DNA of 13,009 nucleotides from a virus (IMGVR_UViG_2619619134_000011), one strand, 5' to 3'. Positions 232-13,009 are shown, counted from the stretch's first letter. Made by a program: numbers and translations. Notes: generated from the sequence alone by a model not told the origin.

Positions 232-461
232 GATCAACACGCTTTAACCGTTATCATTTTTCGGCTATCCGTTATGAAGCTGGTGGATGTTCCCCGATAT
301 GGAGATCCCCATATCGAGAACCCTACCGGATTTTTTTTCCGGTTAACTGTTAATCAGGCTGGTGGGCTTTACCTGTTCGGTAGGTGTTATGATTATCGTA
401 ATACCTTTCCCCCAATGGGGTAAAAGCATCAACCGTAACGAAAGTCGTTATGGTTGCCACC

Positions 462-574
462 GATACCCCAAATTTGGGTATCACGAGTAAGCCCCAAAAT
501 CTGGGTGTTACTCTTACTACCCAAACTACGGGTAGTTTCCGTAGTTTCATGGTCGAGTTGCAGATCTGCAACTC
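462..574. repeat. Structured non-coding repeat cluster: three CCCAAA-N-GGG units, GTAGTTTC x2 and a 20-bp perfect palindrome
   Basis: Near-palindrome GATACCCCAAATTTGGGTATC (462-482); CCCCAAAATCTGGG (492-505); CCCAAACTACGGG (520-532); direct repeat GTAGTTTC (532-539, 541-548); perfect palindrome GAGTTGCAGATCTGCAACTC (555-574). The ORFs the track lists here overlap one another and look spurious. Confidence 0.85.
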
Positions 575-867
575 CCCCATCAACCACAGGCGAATTTCCG
601 CCTTCGGTCATTCCTTAATCATCTGCGTAATCATAATGATTATTCAGCCAGCTCAATTTTGAGCTTTGCTTTAAGTTCAGCGAGTTGCCGCGCCGACTTC
701 CTCAAATTGAGGTTTCCGAAAATATCAGCGGGTTAGCGATTAAGCTGACCATTAATTAAACTGCGAAAATTTCGTAGTTTGTGACTGTCTTTCAGGCAGC
801 TTGTTAACAGTCCTCAGAAGCGAGGGATGTAGCCACCCATTTTTGGGCCGTCGGGAATATCAACCAG

Positions 868-1149
868 TTACCGCCGCAACCGCTCCGGCTTCTTCCAGTG
901 GTACGTGATTTTCTCCTTCTCCCGATACAGTTCAACGCGGCGATTGTAGGCCAGCATTTCCAGAACGCGGATCCGTATATCGCGCATATCCGCATCATTA
1001 AGCTGGATACCATCACGGCGCATCACCTCAGCAACAACACGCGCATAATTTTCAGCGGTCACGCTGTCCGGCTGCGTGGTCTGTTCGTCAGCCTGCTGGC
1101 TGATTCCAGAGACGCGGCGGATTAATCGCAGTATTTCGGCTTCTGTCAT
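868..1149 (-). CDS. Hypothetical protein (93 aa), last gene of the packaging operon
   Basis: ORF begins 13 nt after the terL stop, with a GAGG Shine-Dalgarno about 10 nt upstream of its ATG. I recognise no motif. Coding status inferred from operon context only. Confidence 0.45.
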   Translation of the reverse strand: MTEAEILRLIRRVSGISQQADEQTTQPDSVTAENYARVVAEVMRRDGIQLNDADMRDIRIRVLEMLAYNRRVELYREKEKITYHWKKPERLRR

Positions 1150-1162
1150 GCTGCTGACCTCA

Positions 1163-2824
1163 TTACACCCCGCTAAATTCTTCCAGTTTCTGGCGGTGGC
1201 TGTCGCTTATATCAAAAGCAAAATCCTCATGCTCTGCCTGGAATGTACCAAACGCCATCAGCGCCGCCACGCTCGGGTCTATCTTGTTCGGTGATTTTTT
1301 CTTGTTCGGCTTGATATTGGCGTTCGCGTCACTCTGCATCACGACGTTACTCATCGACCAGGACAACACCGGATCGCCACGATGCACAATCACCCTGCGG
1401 TTAACAAAAACTTCGAACGATTTCGCCGCCGGACTGAATCTGAGGTAGGTTTGCGGGAACGGCTCCACCTCAAAACCTGCCCCCTGTAATTGCGTTCTGA
1501 GATGCGTGGCGTTCCACGTATCAAAGCCCACCAGCCTGATATGAAATTTCTCCGCGTCCTGCATGATGTCATCTCTGATCCGGTCGTAATCAATGCAGTC
1601 GCCAGGCGTTGTGCGTATCCAGCCCGCTTTAGCCCACTGACGATAGACAGCGCGGTTTTTATTGGCGGGGTTCTGTAGCTGGAACTCCGGCAGATAATGA
1701 CGGGAAATCAGCATAATGGTTTTACCGACCGGAAAGGCATAGCATACGCTGGAAATATCGCTGGTTGATGATAAATCCAGCCCCGCGTAACACTCCTGGC
1801 CGTGTAAATCTTCCTCCGTGAACGTTCCGGCACACTCAGCCCATGCGCCGTTACCCATCCACGGGGTAGCCCCCTGGCACCAGATATTAAATCGCTTTGT
1901 CATCATCTCCACCCACTGCGACGGTATTCCCCGCGCTTTCTGGATGGTTGAGGCCAGTTTTTCACGATCGACGGAAACATCGATATTGGGATTCGCCTTT
2001 ATCCACATCGCCGGATCGTCAACCTCGCTTTCATCATCCAGCTCGTAAATCAGCACGAACATGGATTCGTTCACCTCTTCACCATCCAGTATCTGGCAGC
2101 AATAGTCGTAGTGTTGTTTACAGGCTGAAACAACGTTGCTCCCCGATGTGGTGATGGCAAATAACAGCCCCTCCGGACGCGCCCCCATTCCCAGTTCAAG
2201 CGCGGAATAAACCCCGTTGTCAGGGTGCAGGTGATATTCATCCACAATGGCAAGACTCGGGTTTGTGCCCTCGATGGTTGCCGCTTTTGCTGCCAGCGGC
2301 TTTAACAGGCTGTTGCTTTTCGGGTGCATCACCTTGTGGGCCTGAATATTCACCCGCCTGCGTAACGGTCGGGATAAAAGGCACATCTGACGCGCATCAT
2401 CAAAAACGATCCGCGCCTGGTCACGGCTCACCGCTGCGGTGTAAATATCCTGCTGCCCGTTCTCCATAATCAGAAACCAGTTAGCCAGAATCGCGGCGGT
2501 CGTGGATTTCGCATTTTTGCGTGGCACTTCGATAAAGGCGCTCGTGTATTTGCGCCGTCCGGTGGCCTTAACCTTAAAGCCGAGGATGCACGCAAAGGCG
2601 AACTGCTGCCACGGCTCCAGCTCAATGGGTCTGCCACGCATCGGCCCTTTTACGTGCGGACACACCCTGGAAAAGGCAATAAACCGCTCCACAACCTCAC
2701 GATCGAACGTGTAAAGGGGGCTTTCAAGGTCCGAAAAGTACCGTTTAACGGCCTGTTTCAGCCGTTTACAGGCCGGAATTTTGCCCGTTTTTACGTCTTC
2801 TGCGTACTTATTCCAGGCGGTCAA
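1163..2824 (-). CDS. terL: Terminase large subunit (HK97-like family)
   Basis: 553-aa ORF overlapping the terS stop by 17 nt. N-terminal P-loop-like segment (PRKNAKST) and the length and layout of phage large terminases, directly downstream of HNH and TerS. Family assignment is by recognition, not by search. Confidence 0.85.
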   Translation of the reverse strand: MTAWNKYAEDVKTGKIPACKRLKQAVKRYFSDLESPLYTFDREVVERFIAFSRVCPHVKGPMRGRPIELEPWQQFAFACILGFKVKATGRRKYTSAFIEVPRKNAKSTTAAILANWFLIMENGQQDIYTAAVSRDQARIVFDDARQMCLLSRPLRRRVNIQAHKVMHPKSNSLLKPLAAKAATIEGTNPSLAIVDEYHLHPDNGVYSALELGMGARPEGLLFAITTSGSNVVSACKQHYDYCCQILDGEEVNESMFVLIYELDDESEVDDPAMWIKANPNIDVSVDREKLASTIQKARGIPSQWVEMMTKRFNIWCQGATPWMGNGAWAECAGTFTEEDLHGQECYAGLDLSSTSDISSVCYAFPVGKTIMLISRHYLPEFQLQNPANKNRAVYRQWAKAGWIRTTPGDCIDYDRIRDDIMQDAEKFHIRLVGFDTWNATHLRTQLQGAGFEVEPFPQTYLRFSPAAKSFEVFVNRRVIVHRGDPVLSWSMSNVVMQSDANANIKPNKKKSPNKIDPSVAALMAFGTFQAEHEDFAFDISDSHRQKLEEFSGV

Positions 2825-3164
2825 GCTCGTCCTCTTCTTCTGTTTCCGGTGGATTTTTACGGCGGCTTATCGGGTCAAAACCGAGCAAGGAGGCCATTTT
2901 TATCATCACTCTTTCAGCGTCGGATTTTGCGCTTAATGCGGGGTTTCTGCTCTCGCCGCCCTGACTGTTAACAATGCTGAACCCGCGCGCCGCAAGGTCT
3001 GCAACGGCTTTCCGGTAAATGGAGTAGTTGACACAATACAGTTCCAGATTACTCCAGTCGGCGGGGGTAAGGTCTCCCCGTTCCGCAAGCTGCCGCGATT
3101 TTCCCCGCCACTGCTTCACGGCGATATCATCCAGGTAGGCGGGGGCTTTCGGTGGTCTTGCCAT
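2808..3164 (-). CDS. terS: Terminase small subunit (P27-like family)
   Basis: 118-aa ORF directly upstream of and overlapping terL. Size, acidic C-terminus and position fit a small terminase. No clear Shine-Dalgarno; the upstream region is AT-rich. Confidence 0.7.
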   Translation of the reverse strand: MARPPKAPAYLDDIAVKQWRGKSRQLAERGDLTPADWSNLELYCVNYSIYRKAVADLAARGFSIVNSQGGESRNPALSAKSDAERVMIKMASLLGFDPISRRKNPPETEEEDELDRLE

Positions 3165-3217
3165 GCTTATTTTTTCGCCAGATTATTTTTCAAAAAATTC
3201 CCGTGCATAAAAATTTG

Positions 3218-3277
3218 AGGAGGCGGTCGGTGCCCGGCGGGGTCGGGTTTGTCCTGAAAACGCCCCCCCACCCCGTC
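3218..3277. other. Candidate cos core (cosN-like GC-rich dyad) in the HNH-terS intergenic region
   Basis: The 290-bp gap between HNH stop (3455) and terS start (3164) holds a G-rich block (GGCGGTCGGTGCCCGGCGGGGTCGGG) and a C-rich block (CGCCCCCCCACCCCG) around TTTGTCCTGAAAA, giving approximate two-fold symmetry. An AT-rich tract (3165-3217) lies between it and terS. In HK97/lambda-like phages cos sits between HNH and terS. This is inference. Confidence 0.3.
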
Positions 3278-3454
3278 ATACAGCCTCATCAGCGATTGCG
3301 GAAACATTCCATAACCTCGCGGTCACGGTCGGTTAATCGCTTCGCTGTGATGCGTTCTGCGCGTCCTGACGCTTTATCTTTATGCCCTGTTTCCTGTGTC
3401 TTCCATGCGTCACGCTGCCTTATAAGTCCACGGATAAGGCGGTTTTGTTCCCGC

Positions 3455-3895
3455 TCATTCATCAGCGTCATACATCCAGTTATTGCGGTTAGCGGCCCGT
3501 TCTTCCTCCTCACGGAATCCGCCAGCGGCACGCTTGCTTTTTGTTGCCGGATCAAGCCACTTCGTTTTCTGGTTATGACACGCCTGGCACAATGGCTGAT
3601 GGTTCCATTCGGGCCAGAAGAGAACATCATCACCGCCATTAATCGGGATAATGTGATCCACCACCACGGCGGGCGTATATATCCCCTTCTCAAGGCATCG
3701 CACGCATAACGGGTTTTTACTCAGATACATGGCGCGGTATTTGTCCCACTGTCTGGAGTACCCACGCGCGCGGCGGTGTCCTCGTCTGGCATCCTCTGCA
3801 CGCCATGCCGCCCGCCTGTGCTCCTCACACTTGCCGGACTTCACGCGCCTGTTACAGCCTGGTTCTGTGCATCGTCTTAATGGTTGCCACGGCAT
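3455..3895 (-). CDS. HNH endonuclease (terminase-associated)
   Basis: 146 aa with N-terminal Cys pairs (CTEPGC, KCEEH) and an HNH core (VVDHIIP ... NHQPLCQACHNQKT). Its start overlaps the stop of the upstream connector gene as ATGA. It lies immediately upstream of terS-terL, as HNH does in HK97-like packaging modules. Confidence 0.85.
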   Translation of the reverse strand: MPWQPLRRCTEPGCNRRVKSGKCEEHRRAAWRAEDARRGHRRARGYSRQWDKYRAMYLSKNPLCVRCLEKGIYTPAVVVDHIIPINGGDDVLFWPEWNHQPLCQACHNQKTKWLDPATKSKRAAGGFREEEERAANRNNWMYDADE

Positions 3896-4191
3896 CAGTA
3901 CACCCCCACATCACGGTAAGCCGTCCAGAGTGCGCCTATCGTCATGGGTACGCGTGTTTTTGCGTTATCCGCGACAATCTGGCGATTTTCATACAGGTGA
4001 GCGATAAACATCATGCAGCCAATCTTTATGGCTGGCGTGAACGCCAGCCCGTCATCAAAGCGCCTGCCTATATGTATCTGGCACGCCTCAAGCGATGCGG
4101 CAATGTATCCGCTGATTAACTGGTCTTCCTCGTCGCCATCGATGCGGCAATGGAGTTTCACTTCTTCCAGGGTGATAAGTTCTTCTGTCAT
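3895..4191 (-). CDS. Head-tail connector protein (gp6-like)
   Basis: 98 aa with the N-terminal ITLEEVKLHCRIDGDEEDQLISGYIAA pattern typical of gp6-like connector proteins. Overlaps the upstream gene by 4 nt. Confidence 0.65.
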   Translation of the reverse strand: MTEELITLEEVKLHCRIDGDEEDQLISGYIAASLEACQIHIGRRFDDGLAFTPAIKIGCMMFIAHLYENRQIVADNAKTRVPMTIGALWTAYRDVGVY

Positions 4192-4526
4192 TTTTCCGCG
4201 CCCTCACGACAAAGAATTTCAAGGCGTGTCCTGGCGGCATCCGGCAGCGGCTGCCCGATGATATTCAGTACACGCCCCGCCAGCGGCCCCGTATTGACCT
4301 TTACCCGGCTGGTGGCGTTGATGTCCTTCCTGTAGCGTATCCATATCCTTACCGTTCCAGTCGCCAGTTCTGCACCCGATGAAATGGCCTCCTTGCTGCT
4401 GATCATGTTCACGCTTGCCCAGAGTGTGTGACCGTCCACCCACGTTTCGAGTATTTCGCCGGTTATATCCCTGGTCTGTTTCAGGGTCTGAATCGTTACC
4501 CTGTCACGCAGTCGCCCTATGTTCAT
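4188..4526 (-). CDS. Head-tail joining / head closure protein
   Basis: Track ORF 4188-4568 trimmed to the ATG at 4526, which overlaps the portal stop as ATGA. The protein (MNIGRLRDRVTIQ ... GEILETWVD ... WASV) resembles phage head-tail joining proteins. Confidence 0.65.
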   Translation of the reverse strand: MNIGRLRDRVTIQTLKQTRDITGEILETWVDGHTLWASVNMISSKEAISSGAELATGTVRIWIRYRKDINATSRVKVNTGPLAGRVLNIIGQPLPDAARTRLEILCREGAEK

Positions 4527-5734
4527 TCCGGTTTTTCTCCCTCGCTGATTTTTACTTCCTGTTTCCATGCCTGGCTGAACTCATCACCACCATCACGCGG
4601 GGACAGCCCTTCACGTTCGCGGGCTTCGTTCGGGCACATAACGCCGGATTTGATGCCGCGTTCATAGGTGGCAAAGCGTTCGCCAGGAGTGGCCCGTAAC
4701 AGGTCCGCGCTGTCAAACTCCACCTGATACCGGATACCAGGTACAGGTGAGGCCACCAGCAGGGCTTTTTTTATCTGCTGCTCAAAGTTCGCCAGCCACG
4801 GACGCATCGTCATGGTGAGAAATGCGCGGCTTGCCTCGCTGAAATTGCTGTAGGTGCTGTTGCTGTATTCCTGCAAAAAAATCGGCGAGACGTTGAACAT
4901 TCGGGCGATGTCTTCAATGGTGAAGCGACGGGAGGCCAGCCATTCAGCATCCTGATTACTCATGCCCAGCTGCTGATAGCTCATACCCCCTTCAAGGATG
5001 GGCGTTTTTCCGGCGTTTCTGGCCCCTTTGTAGCGTTCCAGTGCGGCTAATGCCTGTTTGCCCTTCACGCCGTCCAGCCATTCGCCTGACGTGATAACCC
5101 CTGCCGCCATCATGCCATCACGCATCACGCTCGCGCCGTGGCGTTGTTGGGCCAGCCCAAGCCCCAGCGATTCGCGGCAGATGGTTACAGGTGAGCGCCC
5201 CATAAAACCGTCATCCGTGGAGTAACGAAGGTGGAGAACCTCCCACGGTAAATAGTTGCGGGTGTTTCCGGTGTAGGCGTCAGTGATGCAGTAGCGCCAG
5301 TTATGCTCACCTGTCTGCTCCACGTTCACCGACTGCGGCGGGTAAGGATGCAAAGCCACCGGAAAACCATCACGCCCCCACTGAATCACCGCATAAGCAT
5401 TACCGTTTAACAGGCAGTGGCGGATCATCATTCGCTTAAACTGGTAGGGGGTTTGCCATGCGTTCGGGCGCTCGTTGAGGATGTGATCGACCGGATGAGA
5501 ATCAAGCCACTCTCGGGCCTCCTTCCCCTTCTCATTGCGTACCAGGTACAGGTAACACGGCATGGTAGCCACCGCCTCAGAGATGACCGTGACGGCGTTC
5601 ATGACGGCGGGCAGTGATTCCGCTGTCCCCGATGATACGTACTCACCCGCCCCCGTGTTCGATGTGCCAGCCAGCGCCATAAACTCATCAAGCGTCATGC
5701 TGCGCTGCTCTTTTTTTCTTCTGAAAGGCCACAT
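4523..5734 (-). CDS. Portal protein (HK97 family)
   Basis: 403-aa ORF starting 1 nt after the protease stop, with a GGGGGTG Shine-Dalgarno upstream. Size and position between protease and head-completion genes fit a portal. Family assignment by recognition. Confidence 0.8.
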   Translation of the reverse strand: MWPFRRKKEQRSMTLDEFMALAGTSNTGAGEYVSSGTAESLPAVMNAVTVISEAVATMPCYLYLVRNEKGKEAREWLDSHPVDHILNERPNAWQTPYQFKRMMIRHCLLNGNAYAVIQWGRDGFPVALHPYPPQSVNVEQTGEHNWRYCITDAYTGNTRNYLPWEVLHLRYSTDDGFMGRSPVTICRESLGLGLAQQRHGASVMRDGMMAAGVITSGEWLDGVKGKQALAALERYKGARNAGKTPILEGGMSYQQLGMSNQDAEWLASRRFTIEDIARMFNVSPIFLQEYSNSTYSNFSEASRAFLTMTMRPWLANFEQQIKKALLVASPVPGIRYQVEFDSADLLRATPGERFATYERGIKSGVMCPNEAREREGLSPRDGGDEFSQAWKQEVKISEGEKPE

Positions 5735-5735
5735 A

Positions 5736-6308
5736 TCACACCCCCGCTAAATCCGCCCACCAGCGGCGATTATCCGCACGCGGCATTTTTTCGGGGTGCT
5801 GCTCGTACAGGGAGCGGCGGGCCAGCTCCACGCCGGAATCAGGGTAAGCCGGTACGGATGTAACGGTAATTTCGTATAGTTCCGCCACCAGCACGGTGCG
5901 CACGCATGGATCTGTTGTGGTATCCCATACATCCTTACGGGAACGAAAGCCAAAGCTCATGCCGGATATATCACCTCGTTTAACCAGTTCGATAACGTCG
6001 CGCCCTGTACTGGTATCCGGTGGGGTCAGTTCAAAGCGTAACCCTGTTTCGTCCTCTTCCAGTTTCAGCGTGCCGGAACGGGTGCGCCCCAGTAACATGC
6101 TGTGGTCATGCTCATACAGGCCGCGAACGTCATTACCCGCCGCAAGCCACTCAGTAAACGCCCCCCGCTGGAATTTTTCGTAAAACTCCCCCCATAGCAG
6201 TTCTGAAAGCTTATCCCAGCGAACAACGTAGCCCGTCAGCGTACCGGCTCCGCTGGTAGTGATTTCCGATGACCGGATTTCCATACTCTTCATAATTTTT
6301 TCACCCAT
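5736..6308 (-). CDS. Prohead maturation protease (HK97 family)
   Basis: 190 aa with a His-containing segment (EHDHSMLLGRT) and a Ser motif (GDISGMSFGF) matching the catalytic residues of HK97-type prohead proteases. The start is uncertain: ATG at 6308, 6293 or 6284. Confidence 0.8.
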   Translation of the reverse strand: MGEKIMKSMEIRSSEITTSGAGTLTGYVVRWDKLSELLWGEFYEKFQRGAFTEWLAAGNDVRGLYEHDHSMLLGRTRSGTLKLEEDETGLRFELTPPDTSTGRDVIELVKRGDISGMSFGFRSRKDVWDTTTDPCVRTVLVAELYEITVTSVPAYPDSGVELARRSLYEQHPEKMPRADNRRWWADLAGV

Positions 6309-6317
6309 AAAACACTA

Positions 6318-6337
6318 AAGGGGCTTTTAAGCCCCTT
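6318..6337 (-). terminator. Intra-operon hairpin between capsid and protease genes (possible attenuator)
   Basis: On the minus strand AAGGGGC-UUAAAA-GCCCCUU (7-bp stem), followed by UAGUGUUUUAUGG, sits between the capsid stop (6348) and the protease start (6308). Confidence 0.3.
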
Positions 6338-6347
6338 CTGTATGCTG

Positions 6348-7505
6348 TTAATCGTCGTCCTGTGGCAGTTCCAGAATCTTGATCGCGTTCGAATCCACCA
6401 CGCCACCGCCTAAATATTTCTGCGTGAAAATTTTGATGAAGCCCGGCTCTGTGAGGTTGTCCGGTCTGGTGCGAACACCTGTTTCGTGATCAACAATGTA
6501 GTAACCGCGTTTGAAGTCACCCAGGGCAATAACGTTATCAGGCATAAACTCCAGATATTCGACCGGAAGGCCCAGCAACGTATCAGGATCACCCGCCTGT
6601 AAACGGTCGCGCCAGATGTAATCACCGTTCGCGTTCTTCACCTTCTGAAGTTTTGCCGCCGTCGTGGAGTTAACCACCCAGACCGCGTTTTTGCGGTATT
6701 TTTTACGTAATGCAAATTTCAGATCGATCAGCGGGTCCGCAGATGTCCACGCCAGAGATTCGGAAGGTTTAATTACCTGCAACGTACCAAAATCACGCTC
6801 TTTGTCGTTCTTCTCTGCACGGGGTACGGATAAAAAACCTTTTGCTTTTTTGTCACCGTCGCCCACAACCAGATCGCTTTCTTCGGTTTCCGTGAAGGTG
6901 TCGCCAATCTCACCCGTCAGCCATGAAAGGATGTCCACATCGGAAAAATCCACGATTTCCTGTGTGGTGCGCGGGTACGCATAGACCGGATACAGCTTAA
7001 TGCTCACCTCGTTAATCTGCGGGGTGCTGGTCTGTTCGCGTGTCTTACCCTCTTCACCGTGGTTAACGGTCGCACCGCCAGCGGAAACAAGCTGCTTAAA
7101 CTCGTTGCTGCTGATTTTCTTCACGGTACAGATGCGGCGCATGGTGGATTCATCCGTCAGCATTCGCATGATTTCGGTGTTCAGTTCGGGGATAACGGTA
7201 TAACCACCATCAGCGGGAACGCCTGTACTTAATGCGCGGGTTTCACCTGTCAGAATGTAGTTGCGTAGTTCTGCGGGGTCAGTGGTCTGGCTGCTTTTAC
7301 CTGGCTTGCTGCGCTCTTCGTCTGCAATGGCTTCAAGGCGGGAAATGTCTTTATCGAGGGATTCAGCTTTAGCGCGTAATTCGTCAAATTTTGCGCCCTC
7401 AGCATCGTTAAGACTGCGGTTTTCTTTTTCCGCGTTCTCCAGCATGTCGCGCATCTGATTTTTAATGGCGGTTTTCTGCTGGCGTAATTCGATTATTCTC
7501 GGCAT
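6348..7505 (-). CDS. Major capsid protein (HK97 fold) with N-terminal scaffold-like domain
   Basis: The track ORF starts at a GTG (7553); I prefer the in-frame ATG at 7505, which has AGGA 8 nt upstream, giving 385 aa. The first ~100 residues are coiled-coil-like and E/K/L-rich, consistent with a fused delta domain and with no separate scaffold gene. Confidence 0.85.
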   Translation of the reverse strand: MPRIIELRQQKTAIKNQMRDMLENAEKENRSLNDAEGAKFDELRAKAESLDKDISRLEAIADEERSKPGKSSQTTDPAELRNYILTGETRALSTGVPADGGYTVIPELNTEIMRMLTDESTMRRICTVKKISSNEFKQLVSAGGATVNHGEEGKTREQTSTPQINEVSIKLYPVYAYPRTTQEIVDFSDVDILSWLTGEIGDTFTETEESDLVVGDGDKKAKGFLSVPRAEKNDKERDFGTLQVIKPSESLAWTSADPLIDLKFALRKKYRKNAVWVVNSTTAAKLQKVKNANGDYIWRDRLQAGDPDTLLGLPVEYLEFMPDNVIALGDFKRGYYIVDHETGVRTRPDNLTEPGFIKIFTQKYLGGGVVDSNAIKILELPQDDD

Positions 7506-7724
7506 AAAAAAAGTCCTGGGGTTAAGTAAGGAACTCCAGGACGCGGCAAACACTCAACCGTTTTTCATAAGGAAATCAGTAATCGCACCGATCGTTTTCC
7601 CGCCTGGTAATGAATATTGGCGAGCACATTAACAGGCGGGAAAATGGCCCCAGCGTCCTGGCACCACGGGCGAGAATAATCATGATTCAGGTCGGGTAAA
7701 ATATGCCGTTCCGGTCAGCGAGCA

Positions 7725-7746
7725 ACGTGGAACAACCACGAACAAA
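7725..7746. promoter_or_regulatory. Inverted repeat and 17-bp repeat in the leader of the packaging operon
   Basis: CGTGGAACAACCACG (7725-7739) is a 5-bp-arm inverted repeat. GAACAACCACGAACAAA (7730-7746) is identical to 215-231. It lies between the upstream terminator and the capsid gene, where the packaging promoter must sit. I could not place -35/-10 hexamers confidently. Confidence 0.35.
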
Positions 7747-7754
7747 TAATTTAC

Positions 7755-7786
7755 AAAACATGACAAAAAGCCGGATTGCTCCGGCT
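7755..7786 (-). terminator. Rho-independent terminator ending the replication-side operon
   Basis: On the minus strand AGCCGGA-GCAA-UCCGGCU (7-bp stem, 4-nt loop) is followed by UUUUGUCAUGUUUUG, immediately after the stop of the 7793-8107 gene. Confidence 0.6.
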
Positions 7787-7792
7787 GTGTGA

Positions 7793-8107
7793 TTATCTGT
7801 CCTGGTAATTTCGCCATATTTCATCGCTTACACCATCTATACCCATTTCAGCATAAGTGCGATCTACTGCCTTTCTCAGGTCTCCGAAGTTATCCGGCGG
7901 CTCCGGTGGCTTCTGTGCCTTCCTGGAACATTCCAGCCGTCGCATCGTAACCTGATGCCGTTCCTTGTCTGTCTCCACCAGCAGCATGACTTCACCCCAT
8001 CGCGCCGACGCCCTCCGGTAAAAGCCTTTCGCCTCGAGTTCTTCCGCTATGCGGTCATGTACCATCGCCACCCCCTCAGAACGGAATACCGTCACCGTAA
8101 GGGTCAT
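7793..8107 (-). CDS. Small regulatory protein, PerC-like (tentative)
   Basis: Track ORF 7793-8185 trimmed to the ATG at 8107 (104 aa) so that it overlaps the SSB stop only modestly. The segment AEELEAKGFYRRASARWGEVM ... DKERHQV.MRR matches my recollection of the PerC/Pch family. Not verified by search. Confidence 0.4.
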   Translation of the reverse strand: MTLTVTVFRSEGVAMVHDRIAEELEAKGFYRRASARWGEVMLLVETDKERHQVTMRRLECSRKAQKPPEPPDNFGDLRKAVDRTYAEMGIDGVSDEIWRNYQDR

Positions 8108-8486
8108 CGCCTCCCGCTGGTGGCTGATTACCCTGTGTGCCTGTGGTTTTGCGTCTGTTCCCGCCAGGACGTGCCGCACGGGCACTGATTACGCTGTCTG
8201 CAATAACCTGATAACCCTGCCGCGTTTCCCCGTTCTGTCCCGTCCACTGGCTGACCTGCATCGTGCCGGATACGCTGGCAACGTCGCCTTTTTGATGTTT
8301 AGCCAGGAAGTCGGCCTGCTTACCAAATGCGATGACCGATAGCCATAACGTCGCCTGCCCATCCTGCGCCTGACTACATGGCAACGATACCGCCATACGC
8401 GCCAGCGTCATCGGTGTGCCCTTACTGGTCTGTTTTACCTGCGGGTCGTCCACCAGCCGCCCGTAAGCCGCTATCTGTGCTGTCAT
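8076..8486 (-). CDS. ssb: Single-stranded DNA-binding protein
   Basis: 136 aa, alignable by eye to E. coli SSB (WLSVIAFGKQADFLAKHQKGDVASVSGTMQVSQWTGQNGETRQGY versus [44 protein letters not shown]), with a Gly/Pro-rich linker and the acidic C-terminal tip DDPYGDGIPF (compare DDDIPF). Confidence 0.8.
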   Translation of the reverse strand: MTAQIAAYGRLVDDPQVKQTSKGTPMTLARMAVSLPCSQAQDGQATLWLSVIAFGKQADFLAKHQKGDVASVSGTMQVSQWTGQNGETRQGYQVIADSVISARAARPGGNRRKTTGTQGNQPPAGGDDPYGDGIPF

Positions 8487-8761
8487 GATTCCACCTCTCC
8501 GGTTTTAACGTTGATGGTTGTTACCTGTTCCGCTTCGGCAATCTCCCGTTCTGTCAGCGTGGCAAAGTTTGCCGCCGCCGTGGTCATGAATGCGCTTATC
8601 AGTTCGGGATGTGCTTTCGCGTATCCTTCCCCCGCGTGGCGGTCTATCGTTCTGATTGCCACCTTTAAAGCGTGCTCTGTCATGTCTAACGCGCGATATT
8701 TCGGTTCTGTTCTGTCTCTGCGTTTTTTGAGTGATTTATTAAATTTCCCTGAAGCGTGCAT
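8483..8761 (-). CDS. Hypothetical protein (92 aa) between origin and ssb
   Basis: ORF with a GAGGGGG Shine-Dalgarno about 10 nt upstream of the ATG at 8761; its stop overlaps the ssb start. No recognised motif. Confidence 0.5.
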   Translation of the reverse strand: MHASGKFNKSLKKRRDRTEPKYRALDMTEHALKVAIRTIDRHAGEGYAKAHPELISAFMTTAAANFATLTEREIAEAEQVTTINVKTGEVES

Positions 8762-8810
8762 ATTTATTTTTACCCCCTCGTTTAAAAAGTTTTGAGTTGT
8801 GCCTCCCCTT

Positions 8811-9036
8811 GTCTACCTTATCTACCTTACTGGCTCTCATGCCAGTAATGGCGCGGCTTTCAGCGGGGTAGAGTGCTTTTATCCACTATCTACCCCGTAT
8901 CTACCTCCCTGTCTGATTCAGGTAAAATCAGGTAGAGAGGGTAGATAGTAGGTAGACAGTGAAAAAAGGCTGTCTACCTAAGTTAATATACTGAATTAAA
9001 TGTATTTTTCTTTACTCAGGTAGACAGGGTAGACAG
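8811..9036. repeat. Iteron array: putative replication origin
   Basis: Eleven copies of the hexamer GGTAGA/TCTACC in both orientations (TCTACC at 8812, 8821, 8889, 8900, 8973; GGTAGA at 8867, 8931, 8940, 8951, 9019, 9028), several extended to GGTAGACAG, flanking an AT-rich segment (8981-9017). Immediately downstream of the primase/helicase gene. Confidence 0.7.
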
Positions 9037-9049
9037 CCATTGCAAAAAA

Positions 9050-10804
9050 TTATAAAAACGCGTCGCAATCGTCTGTTGTTATTGCGTTAGTCTGCGTTAC
9101 TCCCTTAACTTTCCGCGTAATATATTCATGTCCGTAAACTTTCGCGGCTGGCTTCATAGCCTTGCCAAAGTCATTTACGTTTAGCGGTTTGCTCCTGCCT
9201 GCGTACGCCATAAACGCCAGATAGACGCGGTAAAGGCTGTTTCTGGTCGTGTACTTCACTGAATCGCCACCGCCGCCCATCATCAGGCCGCGTGCTTCCT
9301 CCAGAAAATTCAGGAACTGGCAAAACTCAATAACCGGATCCGTCTGTTGCTTTATTGCCAGTGCTTCATCACCGTCACGCTGTTCAATGAGTAAAGCCCG
9401 TGCCTTTTCAGGGTCGGCAAAGTTCGCCAGCAAGCGGCGGATAATCACAGGGATTTCAGCCGCGATCTTTTCCGGTAGCTCCCTGTCTTTTTCTGCCTCG
9501 CTTACGATGTTATCGAACCGGAATATCACCCGACGACGTGCCACACCTCCGGCCCGTTCGGTGAATATCATCGGATTGTTATTGGTTGCCAGCACCACCG
9601 CCCTGATTACCGCCGTAAAACGCTTTTCATATTTCGGGTTAATTTCCACGGGGTCGCCGCCCGTGATTTTCTTGATGCCCGTTCCTTCGCCTGTATATTT
9701 CGGCTGGTCTGCCAGGACGATAAGACGACTCCCGACAACCTGCGCACGCCCACCAGCATCATCAAGCGATGTCATTTCAGCGCTTACCGTGTTCTGTTTC
9801 CCTGCCAGAAGGCTGGCTATGTGTGTGAATGTACTTTTACCGCTCCCGCCGTCTCCGGTGGCCTCAATAAACATCTGCCAGTCGTACCGGTTCGCCATAA
9901 TCATGTACAGCGCGGCACATATACGCATCATCTTGCGCGGGTCTTTTCCGGCTGCGTGCTCAAGCCATTTATGAAAGTTTGGCGCGTTATCGCGGATGTT
10001 CTCCCCTGGTGCTGGTGGCGTGTACTCAATGCCGTTGTGCGTGGTGATCCAGTTCTCCGGCGTGTGCGGGGAAAATTCCCCCGTTTTCAGGTCAAGCGCA
10101 CCATTGGCGAACGGCAGCAAATCGCCGGACGGCTCGCCCATTGGTTCGGCAATAACTTTTAACGCTTCCACGGCGTTATTGATTACGCGCTTGCTGAAAG
10201 TGGCCCTGTGCTCTGAATAGATCGCCACCATTTCGCGGCTAAGTTCCATTGTGCTGACCGGACACCATACCCCGCCGCGCCATACGTGAACGATTTCACT
10301 TTCAGGATGTACGCAAACGCCATCAAAGCGATCGGCAAGCAGCTGCGCGCGCTCACTGTCCGCCATCTGCGAAAGTTGCGCCTTTTGCTTTACCGGAAGC
10401 TCAATGACCAGACCATCAGAAAGATTCTGGCGCTCACGGGCCAGATATTCGCGCCAGTTCTCCACCTTCTGACCGTGCATACCCTCAGGATAAAAATTTG
10501 CATCCTGTACGCCTGCCGCCGCCAGCTTCTGGCCAATCGCCTTTATCATTACTGGCGCAAGATATCCGGCCCTGAATATGCGCACGGATTTTCTGCCTTC
10601 CGGCACAATTTGCAGCTTATCCAGTTCTGATAACTGCTGCTCCCCAAGCCACACAGGAGGCTCATTATCTCCGGCCATACGCGCATCATGTTCCTGCCAT
10701 TGTTTCGCGTGTGCCCAGGCATCACTACCCGCAAAAATAATGACTTCTGTTCCTTTGTGTTTTATGCCGCGTGACTGCTGTTTTACGTTCGGTGCCAGTT
10801 TCAT
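9050..10804 (-). CDS. DNA primase/helicase (P4 alpha-like, D5/SF3 NTPase)
   Basis: 584 aa with Walker A GDGGSGKST and a following hydrophobic-D Walker B-like segment (RLIVLAD). Its start overlaps the upstream ORF stop as ATGA. Typical satellite replication gene next to its origin. Confidence 0.8.
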   Translation of the reverse strand: MKLAPNVKQQSRGIKHKGTEVIIFAGSDAWAHAKQWQEHDARMAGDNEPPVWLGEQQLSELDKLQIVPEGRKSVRIFRAGYLAPVMIKAIGQKLAAAGVQDANFYPEGMHGQKVENWREYLARERQNLSDGLVIELPVKQKAQLSQMADSERAQLLADRFDGVCVHPESEIVHVWRGGVWCPVSTMELSREMVAIYSEHRATFSKRVINNAVEALKVIAEPMGEPSGDLLPFANGALDLKTGEFSPHTPENWITTHNGIEYTPPAPGENIRDNAPNFHKWLEHAAGKDPRKMMRICAALYMIMANRYDWQMFIEATGDGGSGKSTFTHIASLLAGKQNTVSAEMTSLDDAGGRAQVVGSRLIVLADQPKYTGEGTGIKKITGGDPVEINPKYEKRFTAVIRAVVLATNNNPMIFTERAGGVARRRVIFRFDNIVSEAEKDRELPEKIAAEIPVIIRRLLANFADPEKARALLIEQRDGDEALAIKQQTDPVIEFCQFLNFLEEARGLMMGGGGDSVKYTTRNSLYRVYLAFMAYAGRSKPLNVNDFGKAMKPAAKVYGHEYITRKVKGVTQTNAITTDDCDAFL

Positions 10805-11100
10805 TTTTTACCCCTGAATCCTTTAATCATGGTTTTCATCTTCTGAATATTGGCGCGTGCTTTCTCCCTGCTGGTGGGCACGTTACGCGGTACGGCCTGC
10901 ACAAGAGAAAAATCACGGTCGAACTGATAAACAGGCATCACGCAATCATATTCGTAACCTTCACGGCGGTAAGTTACGCACCGTCCCGCCACGCCCTTAA
11001 TCATTACCGTGCCGCCGTACTGGTCGCGGTAAATATCACCGCGCGTAAATTTAGGGTGAGTGTTGCCACTGGCAGTTAAGCCAGAATATTTAAGTTTCAT
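10801..11100 (-). CDS. Hypothetical protein (99 aa)
   Basis: ORF with GGAG upstream of the ATG, translationally coupled to primase. Basic C-terminus. No recognised motif. Confidence 0.5.
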   Translation of the reverse strand: MKLKYSGLTASGNTHPKFTRGDIYRDQYGGTVMIKGVAGRCVTYRREGYEYDCVMPVYQFDRDFSLVQAVPRNVPTSREKARANIQKMKTMIKGFRGKK

Positions 11101-11105
11101 TATTT

Positions 11106-11339
11106 TTATTCTCCGGTGTGCTGTTCTTTATATCTGTCGTGCAATAGATCTATTTCTTGCAGTTCCATTATTACAGGCTCAAGAAGCGTTATTAATGCCG
11201 TGGCAATTCTTGATTTTTGTTTGTCGCGTTCATTGTCGCCAAGTGTTTCAAGCCATATGCGCAATATTTCCAGCATGTTTTCACTGTGAGAAAGTGCAAG
11301 AAATGCGCGGTCTATTGTTTGGTGGTAAATATCACGCAT
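11106..11339 (-). CDS. Hypothetical protein (77 aa)
   Basis: Tightly packed ORF in the same operon, with a G-rich Shine-Dalgarno-like sequence upstream. No recognised motif. Confidence 0.45.
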   Translation of the reverse strand: MRDIYHQTIDRAFLALSHSENMLEILRIWLETLGDNERDKQKSRIATALITLLEPVIMELQEIDLLHDRYKEQHTGE

Positions 11340-11340
11340 A

Positions 11341-11562
11341 TTAATCCCCGTCCGTCGTTTTTCTTAAAATAACCTCTGTCACGAAATCAGCATAATCGGC
11401 GGCGATATTCAGTACATCAATCCCCGTTGATTTATATTCTCTCGTGGAAAGTAAGAAAAAAGCCGCTCTAATAAGCTCTGGCATTGACGAAAGCGCATCA
11501 GCCGCATCATCAGGAACGCCGGAAAATTCCTGTTTCAGGGAATTAAAACGATCATCACGCAT
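11341..11562 (-). CDS. Hypothetical protein (73 aa)
   Basis: ATG at 11562 preceded by AGGGGGG; overlaps the stop of the upstream gene by 8 nt. No recognised motif. Confidence 0.5.
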   Translation of the reverse strand: MRDDRFNSLKQEFSGVPDDAADALSSMPELIRAAFFLLSTREYKSTGIDVLNIAADYADFVTEVILRKTTDGD

Positions 11563-11920
11563 GTTTACCCCCCTGAATGACCTGATAACCGCAACTGGTC
11601 AGCAACTCGATAAATTCCGGCAGTGTGCCGAAACAGCAATCATCACGCAGCCGTTCGCAGGATACCTCGACGCCGTTTTCGTAGTGACTCACCATACATC
11701 CGGTAAAATGCAGATCATCATCGTGATGGCTCGTTGACGGCTTAATCAGTCGCGCACGTTCCGCCAGTTCCAGCAATGCTTCAACGCTTCCGGCAATTGC
11801 ACCATCCGGCAGGTGATAATTACGCACTATGCGCCCGTTCTCCACATTGACCAGCAACTGCCCGGTAAATTTCTCGTCAAACTGAATGCTGTTAAGGTCA
11901 GAAATTGACAGGTTATGCAT
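11555..11920 (-). CDS. Hypothetical protein (121 aa)
   Basis: Track ORF 11555-11938 trimmed to the ATG at 11920, which has a near-perfect AGGAGGTG Shine-Dalgarno 6 nt upstream and overlaps the upstream stop. No recognised motif. Confidence 0.55.
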   Translation of the reverse strand: MHNLSISDLNSIQFDEKFTGQLLVNVENGRIVRNYHLPDGAIAGSVEALLELAERARLIKPSTSHHDDDLHFTGCMVSHYENGVEVSCERLRDDCCFGTLPEFIELLTSCGYQVIQGGKHA

Positions 11921-12137
11921 GGTGCACCTCCTGCACATCAGCCATGATAATTTTTCCGGCCTTATCCAGTGCCTGATCGGCTTTTAGCTGCACAAATGCT
12001 AAATAATGGAAGATGCATTCTGATTCTCTGGCTGCGTGTTTATGCGCCCTGTCAGCAATAACAGAAATATCAATAAGCGCGTGCATCAGCGTAGTGAGCG
12101 CGGCGGCTGCTGCGTCCGGTGTGGTTTTATTGCACAT
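11913..12137 (-). CDS. Hypothetical protein (74 aa)
   Basis: ORF in the operon stack, overlapping both neighbours. No recognised motif. Confidence 0.45.
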   Translation of the reverse strand: MCNKTTPDAAAAALTTLMHALIDISVIADRAHKHAARESECIFHYLAFVQLKADQALDKAGKIIMADVQEVHHA

Positions 12138-12333
12138 GGCCTACCCCCTGGCGAATACGGGCAGCGAATACCATCACGCAGCCATCAGGAGATTGCTGAC
12201 GCGCTTCCTGTTCGCTGGTGGCCTCAATGGTAATCACGCGCGGTTGTGCCGTGCTCAGGGCGATAAAACGCCAGATGTATTTATTCAGGTTGTGCGAGTC
12301 CCGCCCTTGCGGGTGTGTGGTATGATTTCTCAT
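12127..12333 (-). CDS. Hypothetical protein (68 aa), first gene of the leftward operon
   Basis: C-terminal part of track ORF 12127-12789, starting at the ATG at 12333 with AGGT 4 nt upstream. The upstream 150 codons of the track ORF are antisense to the RHH gene and read through the operators and a terminator hairpin, so were discarded. Confidence 0.4.
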   Translation of the reverse strand: MRNHTTHPQGRDSHNLNKYIWRFIALSTAQPRVITIEATSEQEARQQSPDGCVMVFAARIRQGVGHVQ

Positions 12334-12433
12334 AGCTACCTCGATACGCTTTCTATCGTTGGTGGTTAGAAGCCCTGCGAGTGTTCCACCACTGCGGGGC
12401 TTCGCTGTATTTAATGGTTGCGTATCTTCAATA

Positions 12434-12478
12434 TGGTACGTACCATTGGGTTTCAGTTTATAACGGTGGTACGTACCA
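12434..12478. promoter_or_regulatory. Twin palindromic operators in the divergent intergenic region
   Basis: Two identical perfect 12-bp palindromes TGGTACGTACCA at 12434-12445 and 12467-12478, centres 33 bp apart. The second ends 1 nt before the ATG of the plus-strand RHH-like gene. They lie between the divergent starts at 12333 (minus) and 12479 (plus). Confidence 0.65.
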
Positions 12479-12661
12479 ATGCAAGAAAAAAATGAGAAAC
12501 CAAAATTTGATCGCTCTGGCAGCACAAAGAAAAACATCCGCTTCGAAGACACATTGTTGCAACAAATTAACGAAGTTGCTGGGCCTGGTAATTTCAGTTC
12601 ATGGGTTAAAAATGCCTGTCGTGACAAGCTACGCAAAGAAGGCATAGAACCAAAAGGCTGA
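12479..12661 (+). CDS. Small DNA-binding regulator, ribbon-helix-helix-like (60 aa)
   Basis: The only convincing plus-strand gene. The pattern basic N-terminus, KKNIRFEDTLLQQINEVAG, G.NFSSWVKNACRDKL fits a beta-strand plus two-helix RHH fold as I recall it. GGTGG lies 9 nt upstream of the ATG; a terminator follows. Confidence 0.5.
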   Translation: MQEKNEKPKFDRSGSTKKNIRFEDTLLQQINEVAGPGNFSSWVKNACRDKLRKEGIEPKG

Positions 12662-12752
12662 TAGTCCACCAGCAAGCCAGCACACTGAGCACATTGCCCA
12701 CCAGCCAGCAAATCGCTATGATGTTCGGGCTTATGTTTAGTGTTTTCCCATT

Positions 12753-12780
12753 GGCGACCGCCCCAGGTCGCCTTTGTTTT
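12753..12780 (+). terminator. Rho-independent terminator after the RHH-like gene
   Basis: GGCGACC-GCCCCA-GGTCGCC (7-bp GC-rich stem) followed by TTTGTTTT on the plus strand, between the RHH gene and the end of alpA. Confidence 0.6.
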
Positions 12781-12799
12781 ATGTGTCATATGCTCCCCT

Positions 12800-13009
12800 T
12801 TACACTGCCTTACCTGAATTAATGCGATCCCGGCTTTTAACCCATTCCATAACCTCGGACAGCAGCCACCCTACAGAACGACCGCCCAGATTAAGACGTG
12901 ACGGAAAGCGCCCTTTTTTCTCCAGTTCGTAACGTGTAGTGCGGCACACTCCAGTTAACTTACGACATTCATCCTCACGGATTACGCGATCTTCATTTAT
13001 TTCACGCAT
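12800..13009 (-). CDS. alpA: AlpA-family transcriptional regulator / excisionase-like protein
   Basis: 69 aa with the HTH segment CRKLTGVCRTTRYELEKKGRFPSRLNLGGRSVGWLLSEVMEWV, characteristic of AlpA-family proteins. The ATG is the last three bases of the window, so the upstream region (and any integrase) is outside it. Confidence 0.8.
   Translation of the reverse strand: MREINEDRVIREDECRKLTGVCRTTRYELEKKGRFPSRLNLGGRSVGWLLSEVMEWVKSRDRINSGKAV

Follow-up and report, generated by a model that had tools for sequence, protein, structure and literature searches.

Among phage-inducible chromosomal islands (PICIs), the prototype of the capsid-forming class (cf-PICIs) is EcCIEDL933 of Escherichia coli O157:H7 EDL933 (Alqurainy et al., 10.1101/2022.09.08.507074; PDB 9gyi). 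Induction of this island by a helper phage requires alpA, and the helper contributes tail genes alone. Transfer and the formation of small capsids, but not packaging of the helper, depend on each of the EcCIEDL933 genes 1786-1794, except that a mutation of the hypothetical gene 1792 merely reduced transfer severely (10.1101/2022.09.08.507074). The capsid has T=4 symmetry and measures 47.5 nm across, and the adaptor and connector proteins fix the tail specificity, EcCIEDL933 taking the tails of HK106 but not those of HK022 (10.1101/2025.02.11.637232). Its capsids are released without tails and combine with free tails afterwards. As a group, cf-PICIs have int, alpA, and rep alleles in common with classical PICIs, and in E. 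coli they integrate at six attB sites (10.1101/2022.09.08.507074). The DNA considered here is a stretch of 13,009 nucleotides from the viral sequence IMGVR_UViG_2619619134_000011, referred to below as the window. With high confidence, it represents all but the last ~1.8 kb (the integrase end) of a ~14.7 kb E. coli cf-PICI, which was inserted by a tyrosine integrase at a 16-bp site overlapping the 3' end of yljB, 86 bp upstream of clpS. Family, mechanism, and capsid structure of such islands have already been published and the packaging module is almost the same as that of EcCIEDL933; the element is therefore already known, and our finding mainly confirms that a cf-PICI is recognizable from sequence alone.

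Features used to recognize cf-PICIs are eight packaging genes, AlpA-type regulation, a primase-replicase with a neighbouring origin, an integrase with att repeats, a capsid protein and large terminase subunit (TerL) set apart from their phage homologues, the lack of lysis genes or of a complete tail module, and a size of ~10-18 kb (10.1101/2025.02.11.637232). Genes of the window were called from a listing of open reading frames (ORFs) and from Pfam, PHROG, and NCBIfam scans, and defence families were searched with PADLOC. EcCIEDL933 was compared via the corresponding island of O157:H7 strain PV15-279, which is inserted in tqsA, and via PDB 9gyi. All eight packaging genes are present, intact, and contiguous on the minus strand according to the Pfam and PHROG scans. 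In the direction of transcription the module begins with the HK97-fold major capsid protein (6348-7505, 385 aa; PF05065, 2.6e-61), which is identical to PDB chain 9gyi in 385 of 385 residues and to the capsid protein of the PV15-279 island at 100%, and which carries the residues named for the EcCIEDL933 capsid (S93xGxxAD99, D257, K290, D295, E319, and R345; 10.1101/2025.02.11.637232). Downstream lie the genes for the HK97-family (S78) prohead serine protease (5736-6308, 190 aa; PF04586, 7e-48; 99.5% identical to the PV15-279 counterpart, as are the following values), the portal (4523-5734, 403 aa; PF04860, 5.9e-91; 99.8%), the head closure or head completion protein (4188-4526, 112 aa; PF05521, 1.4e-23; phrog_25 Hc1, 6.9e-35; 99.1%), the gp6-like head-tail adaptor (3895-4191, 98 aa; PF05135, 1.5e-11; phrog_40 Ad1, 4.9e-35; 99.0%), an HNH endonuclease (3455-3895, 146 aa; PF01844, 1.8e-8; 100%), a 60-aa protein (3289-3471; phrog_3173, 7.5e-37; 100%), the small terminase subunit TerS of the P27 family (2808-3164, 118 aa; PF05119, 5.8e-23; 99.2%), and TerL (1163-2824, 553 aa; PF03354, 3.9e-26, and PF20441, 1.1e-49; 98.0%). 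The last gene of the island (868-1149, minus strand) codes for a 93-aa protein (phrog_1561, 1.5e-55) that is 87% identical to its PV15-279 counterpart. None of the 11 ORFs in the packaging region is truncated. Ten of the proteins from this region have counterparts of equal length and 98-100% identity in the PV15-279 island, where the packaging genes also stand in the same order. Judged by this gene order, the 60-aa gene is probably the counterpart of EcCIEDL933 gene 1792.

HK97-like phages usually have the order TerS, TerL, portal, protease, and capsid. The order in the window (capsid, protease, portal, connectors, HNH, TerS, TerL) differs from it, and an earlier reading made from the DNA alone (the sequence-only reading) was right to call the module inverted relative to such phages, with the capsid first and the terminases last. 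The differing gene organization of the cf-PICI packaging module has also been remarked upon before (10.1101/2022.09.08.507074). When the capsid protein and TerL were searched against 50,697 phage records, matches above 58% identity were found only in records of 10.7-16.5 kb (vB_KppS-Ant, Pmp7, and Pmp8), in a 3.8-kb fragment, and in a poorly annotated 106-kb "Klebsiella phage" record that has a permuted cf-PICI module embedded at its end. Both proteins are thus set apart from phage homologues by a gap in identity, with 58-82% for the satellite-sized, fragmentary, and embedded records versus at most 40% for true phages; bona fide phages of 37-47 kb reach 33-40%. In the phage matches, the distance from the left end is ~0.4-0.6 kb for TerL and ~4.4 kb for the capsid gene. 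A megablast search with the whole window retrieved no phage record with more than 15% coverage. The sequence-only reading had proposed to ask whether capsid, portal, and TerL cluster with cf-PICIs or nest within phage clades in a phage-sized element. These proteins are 98-100% identical to those of an EcCIEDL933-type island, and the identity gap together with the small size of the matching records places the outcome on the satellite side. Of 5426 complete E. coli genomes, 410 (~7.6%) carry no less than 80% of the packaging module.

The boundaries of the element lead to the same assignment. Positions 1-86 of the window are E. coli chromosome, belonging to the clpS-yljB/cspD intergenic region and adjoining the start codon of clpS on its upstream side; they are matched in 5425 of 5426 complete E. 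coli genomes, and the segment 1-106 is 99% identical to K-12 just upstream of clpS. Divergence from the empty site of K-12 begins just past the att core GATAGATAACTATCAT (87-102), which marks the integrase-distal junction, covers the final 4 nt of the small yljB gene, and lies 86 bp upstream of the clpS start (positions 2312-2327 of the K-12 locus L002). The closest complete genome (L001) and six further relatives (L007-L012) have a second copy of the core, GATAAATAACTATCAT, on the far side of the integrase; this copy overlaps the 3' end of yljB. In L001 the same island is located between clpS and yljB/cspD, and a tyrosine integrase precedes the second core. The best relatives are draft or Logan contigs, 99.4-99.5% identical to the window over 10.9 kb, and in those designated L007-L009 the integrase, att core, yljB, cspD, and macB follow directly beyond alpA. 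AlpA is 100% identical in L007-L012, where the integrase is the next gene, and the integrase of L001 and L007-L012 has 412 aa with Arm-DNA-bind_3 and Phage_integrase domains. No tail or lysis genes were found between alpA and the host genes in these relatives, nor on the clpS side. The segment 103-13009 of the window (12,907 bp) and the 1,826 bp from the alpA start to the second core in L008 (99.5% identical) add up to an element of ~14.7 kb, within the size range given above for cf-PICIs. Both flanks and the island size, which the sequence-only reading had proposed to inspect, thus agree with its choice of a cf-PICI over a prophage, as do the head proteins that are 98-100% identical to those of an EcCIEDL933-type island. 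Its limits for the element, 868-13009, have to be revised: the island starts at ~87-103 and runs ~1.8 kb beyond the window end, to the integrase. Nor is TerL followed by non-coding DNA only, as had been stated, because this part of the window holds the 93-aa gene, a structured conserved region (400-680), putative arm-type repeats (172-241), and then the att core with 86 bp of chromosome. The repeats comprise TTAACTACACC twice and CGAACAA repeats. CGAACA-type repeats occur in both arms and TTAACTACACC near both ends of the island; they probably are arm-type recombinase sites for integration and excision. A 17-bp direct repeat, AAATTAACTACACCATT, is found again 22 bp upstream of the integrase start in L001. 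The island replaces everything farther upstream of clpS and could change the promoter context of clpS-clpA.

Regulation and replication are of the PICI type. The AlpA regulator (12800-13009, minus strand, 69 aa; PF05930, 1.7e-16) has its start codon in the last triplet of the window. The primase or replication initiator (9050-10804, minus strand, 584 aa) contains D5_N, DUF5906, and Pox_D5 domains, and the single-stranded DNA-binding protein SSB (8076-8486, minus strand, 136 aa; PF00436, 4.2e-17) is encoded between it and the capsid gene. All three precede the head module, as the sequence-only reading had it, and every gene that it named (alpA, primase, SSB, capsid, protease, portal, two head-tail connectors, HNH, TerS, and TerL) is intact and on the minus strand. 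Twelve matches to the iteron GGTAGAYAG are present in the window, where 2.25 would be expected, and 12 were reached in none of 200 shuffled sequences. Ten of the matches fall within 228 bp (8809-9036) directly 3' of the primase gene and form two opposed sets flanking an AT-rich stretch, a layout that equals the described organization of PICI replication origins (PMC6092414) and suggests that this region is the origin. Tail, lysis, and CI-type genes, whose absence had also been pointed out, are indeed missing, as no ORF of the window matches such a family in Pfam, PHROG, NCBIfam, or PADLOC; lysis genes and complete tail modules are forbidden components in SatelliteFinder.

Apart from the packaging module, the window and the EcCIEDL933-type island share SSB (98.5% identical), the PerC-family regulator (92% identical), and the 93-aa gene with the structured region at the island end, and they are similar in size (14.7 kb in the window island versus 15.4 kb). 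They differ in the integrase and the att site (within tqsA in EcCIEDL933, in the clpS-yljB/cspD intergenic region here) and in AlpA (56% identical), the primase (47%), and the DUF4222 protein (34%). A second group of E. coli cf-PICIs, located at a pntB/tqsA-mdtJ site (such as that of strain CFSAN061761, L003), is 97.7% identical at the nucleotide level over window positions 322-12404 and has a 100% identical primase, but differs in the integrase, in alpA (64-66%), and in the att site. The exact primase of the window occurs in 1400 collection blocks, including islands that reside at the other att site (tqsA) with yet another alpA. By these sequence comparisons the element is a modular mosaic, in which the EcCIEDL933 packaging module is combined with an integrase and att site, an alpA, and a primase of other allelic type. 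This mosaic agrees with the modular exchange already described for cf-PICIs and illustrates it.

Classical Gram-negative PICIs (EcCICFT073 type, such as the island at tRNA-Ile in L015) share with the window the AlpA-Icd-primase-SSB layout, an iteron origin 3' of the primase gene, a PerC-like gene, and the 93-aa gene with a 130-nt core next to it. They lack portal, connectors, HNH, TerS, and TerL, however; what they possess instead is DUF1441, a protease/capsid fusion, and lambda-type cosN pairs, with capsids and terminase taken from the helper. HK97/HK106-like siphoviruses, which serve as helpers and are the evolutionary source of the module, have in common with it the HK97-fold capsid protein with the SxGxxAD cleavage motif, the S78 protease, the portal, gp6/gp7-like connectors, and HNH-dependent cos packaging. 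They differ in sequence (at most 40% identity), in gene order, in carrying tail, lysis, and repressor genes, and in having a T=7 capsid as opposed to the T=4 capsid of cf-PICIs. One record deposited as a phage, the 16.5-kb Escherichia phage vB_KppS-Ant, has a cf-PICI-like gene set and order. In this record and in the Pasteurella phages Pmp7 and Pmp8, also deposited as phages, the capsid protein is 58-65% and TerL 68-81% identical to that of the window. vB_KppS-Ant differs by a 2.3-kb gene, annotated as tape measure, at the accessory position after TerL and by another left module. Among the GenBank "phage" entries LR881103.1, OR544138.1, OR544139.1, and PQ569648.1, those of 10.7-16.5 kb look cf-PICI-like; the gene set was checked for LR881103.1. 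Several such records appear to be satellites of the cf-PICI kind, and islands like the one described here should not be annotated as defective prophages.

The packaging site of the island can be placed provisionally. The 124 bp that separate the 60-aa gene from TerS (3165-3288) are conserved across divergent cf-PICIs and contain the conserved motif GGGGTGGGGGGGCGTTTTCAGGAC (3251-3274, minus strand). Moreover, the motif GGGGTGGGGG..GTTTTCAGGAC coincides exactly with the right end of the linear record of vB_KppS-Ant (...TTTTCAGGAC), a record that restarts 22 nt upstream of terS. Because of this intergenic conservation and these record ends, an island-specific cos site probably lies within 3165-3288. 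No lambda-type cosN was found in the island end region; classical PICIs do carry functional lambda-like cosN sites. Within the primase gene, the sequence GGGCGGCGACCC (9651-9662, minus strand) is one mismatch away from the lambda cosN cohesive end and sits in the palindrome CACGGGCGGCGACCCCGTG, but it overlaps codons for TGGDP and is probably coincidental.

Helper-dependent induction, small island-encoded capsids, and a need for nothing but tails from the helper are inferred for the window island from EcCIEDL933, on the strength of the 98-100% protein identity. A life cycle modelled on the near-identical prototype would begin with a helper phage turning on alpA. Excision would be followed by replication from the iteron origin with the island's own primase-helicase and SSB. 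Expression of the late operon would then supply the capsid protein, protease, and portal for the assembly of small T=4 heads of the HK97 fold, and HNH, TerS, and TerL would cut island concatemers at the island-specific cos so that only island DNA is packaged. With the neck completed by the head-closure and adaptor proteins, the tail-less heads would join phage-made siphovirus tails, probably of the HK106-like type. Since the adaptor and head-closure proteins are 99% identical to those of EcCIEDL933, the same tail specificity is inferred for the window island. The alpA module is different, and the inducing helper may therefore possibly differ from that of EcCIEDL933. The mosaic thus predicts the tail specificity of EcCIEDL933 in combination with a possibly different inducing helper.

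Some observations weigh against the assignment to the cf-PICIs or against parts of it. The integrase and the second att site lie outside the window and are seen in relatives alone. No sequence identical to the window was found in the searched collections, and complete E. coli genomes match it at up to 97% over the whole length. The region downstream of alpA is rearranged among relatives, which could affect regulation. As alpA and the primase are unlike those of EcCIEDL933, the inducing helper may be another one than for that island. The placement of cos draws on intergenic conservation and on the ends of one linear record, which possibly reflect a convention of the depositor.

Among the alternative explanations, a structurally intact but currently immobile cf-PICI, domesticated or helper-less and no longer excised or induced, fares best, and a modest residual chance must be granted to it. 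The variation downstream of alpA with pseudogene fragments annotated in L001 and the lack of a predicted sigma-70-like promoter upstream of the capsid operon would both fit an immobile copy. Yet its 11 of 11 full-length packaging-region ORFs, ten of them coding for proteins 98-100% identical to those of a functional island, and the att cores kept at both ends would be unexpected in such a copy, and the recurrence of the architecture in hundreds of genomes and at several att sites implies recent mobility. We regard it as very improbable that the window contains a decayed HK97-like prophage from which deletions stripped the tail, lysis, and immunity genes. Such a remnant would account for head and terminase families common to HK97-like phages, but not for an att-bounded element of ~14.7 kb with host genes immediately outside, for a gene order unlike that of phages and identities to true phages of at most 40%, for PICI-type regulation and replication (alpA, Icd-like domain, D5_N primase, and iterons 3' of the primase), or for a compact architecture kept across many genomes; the tail module, lysis cassette, CI/Cro immunity, and ~40 kb size of a temperate HK97-like prophage are lacking as well. 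Least credible of all is a classical PICI or P4-like satellite redirecting helper capsids, because, even though alpA, the Icd-like domain, D5_N primase, SSB, PerC, and the 93-aa gene with its core are shared with capsid-less PICIs, the window encodes portal, adaptor, head closure, a complete capsid protein, and TerL (forbidden PICI components in SatelliteFinder), its ORFs include no Sid/Psu/Delta-like protein or Rpp (DUF1441) in the Pfam and PHROG scans, no lambda-type cosN pair lies beside the 93-aa gene, and an Rfam scan found no CI/C4-type RNA, so that the likeness to P4 is confined to the Icd-like domain, the AlpA-family regulator, and the D5_N helicase domain.

While the cf-PICI itself belongs to a described family, its clpS-proximal end provides the only potentially new lead, which is a lead and not a finding. 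Downstream of the 93-aa gene, the non-coding segment 400-680 forms ~9 consecutive hairpins with fold z-scores of -8.3 on the minus strand, which is the strand of the gene, and -10.6 on the plus strand. Inside it, a conserved 130-nt core (457-586, minus strand) holds the perfect 20-bp palindrome GAGTTGCAGATCTGCAACTC at 555-574. Copies of the palindrome are present in 63 IMG/VR contigs, and many E. coli genomes carry the core. These 63 loci include cf-PICIs as well as PICIs that lack a capsid and differ in their integrases, and nearly all of them have a homologue of the 93-aa gene next to the palindrome. Capsid-less PICIs have a core that is 87.5-95% identical (92-95% in four of five loci), as compared with 75-83% nucleotide identity for the neighbouring 93-aa gene, and the central ~85 nt of the core are nearly invariant among 36 unique sequences. 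In classical PICIs, 33-48 nt separate the stop codon from the core, after which comes a terminator-like hairpin; the window island has an insertion of ~250 nt between the 93-aa gene and the core. At every closely compared locus the 93-aa gene stands immediately upstream of the core, in most loci at a spacing of ~35-50 nt.

From these patterns of conservation, we tentatively suggest, at somewhat less than even confidence, that the core is an undescribed functional non-coding element, more constrained than the adjacent gene, coupled to the phrog_1561 gene, and common to PICIs of the capsid-forming and the capsid-less kind that differ in their integrases. Such an element could be an RNA in the 3' untranslated region or a protein-binding site made of several palindromes. 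An RNA is suggested by one-sided stem substitutions, which are mostly G-U compatible on the strand of the gene and give a weak hint in this direction, and by the terminator-like hairpin after the core in classical PICIs. In a covariation analysis, which has low power given the near-invariant central ~85 nt, double changes were seen in only 2 of 38 predicted pairs. If the element is real, its role might be in the regulation of the satellite, the sensing of helpers, or the processing of DNA. Rfam contains no family for the core and gave sub-threshold, chance-level matches only (manA with 21.6 bits versus a gathering score of 55.2, and mir-3927 on the palindromes of the origin), and an exact 22-mer of the core had no match in 100,044 GTDB species-representative genomes. 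The possibility that the core is a lambda-like cos was rejected, as the 93-aa gene stands between the core and the perfect cosN pairs in classical PICIs. The 93-aa protein has no match in Pfam, NCBIfam, or PADLOC; its AlphaFold model consists of three helices (pLDDT 70) and had no Foldseek match in the PDB with E < 0.5. Between this gene and the core, a 37-bp segment (785-821) is absent from L001, L003-L006, and most other relatives and is shared by the window and strain TOE17, which match at 100% over 322-868.

Several smaller genes complete the island, and some of them had been overlooked by the sequence-only reading, namely the PerC-family gene, the 60-aa and 93-aa genes, an Icd-like domain, and a gene on the opposite strand. 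Next to alpA, a 220-aa ORF (12127-12789, minus strand) resembles the Icd-like family (NF033153, 9.5e-19) only in its C-terminal 44 residues (171-214, encoded at 12148-12279), and the exact ORF occurs in 36 collection blocks. It overlaps the antisense gene of a YlcI/YnfO-family small protein (12479-12661, plus strand; NF041551, 1.8e-7), the sole opposite-strand gene, which is annotated in L001 and in PV15-279 (L013). In relatives such as L001, this stretch after alpA has been rearranged or bears annotations of fragments or pseudogenes; it corresponds to the variable gene after alpA of the cf-PICI literature. On the minus strand follow four small proteins of unknown-function families (11106-11339, 11341-11562, 11555-11938, and 11913-12137), the DUF4222 protein (10801-11100), and, past the primase gene and the origin, a 92-aa protein (8483-8761; phrog_1231, 8.3e-52). 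PADLOC assigned no defence family to any small ORF of the window. The PerC-family regulator (7793-8065, minus strand, 90 aa; PF06069, 2.2e-44) is encoded just upstream of the capsid operon and shows a weak, sub-threshold likeness to the ANR family. PerC-like genes are frequent in Gram-negative PICIs and have been reported either to have no effect on the expression of LEE virulence genes or to repress it. Putative terminator-like hairpins were found by a consensus scan on the minus strand 3' of the PerC gene (7769-7786) and directly 3' of the capsid gene (6317-6338; 9-bp stem, T-rich tail), and suggest separate transcription units or an attenuation that raises the level of capsid mRNA.

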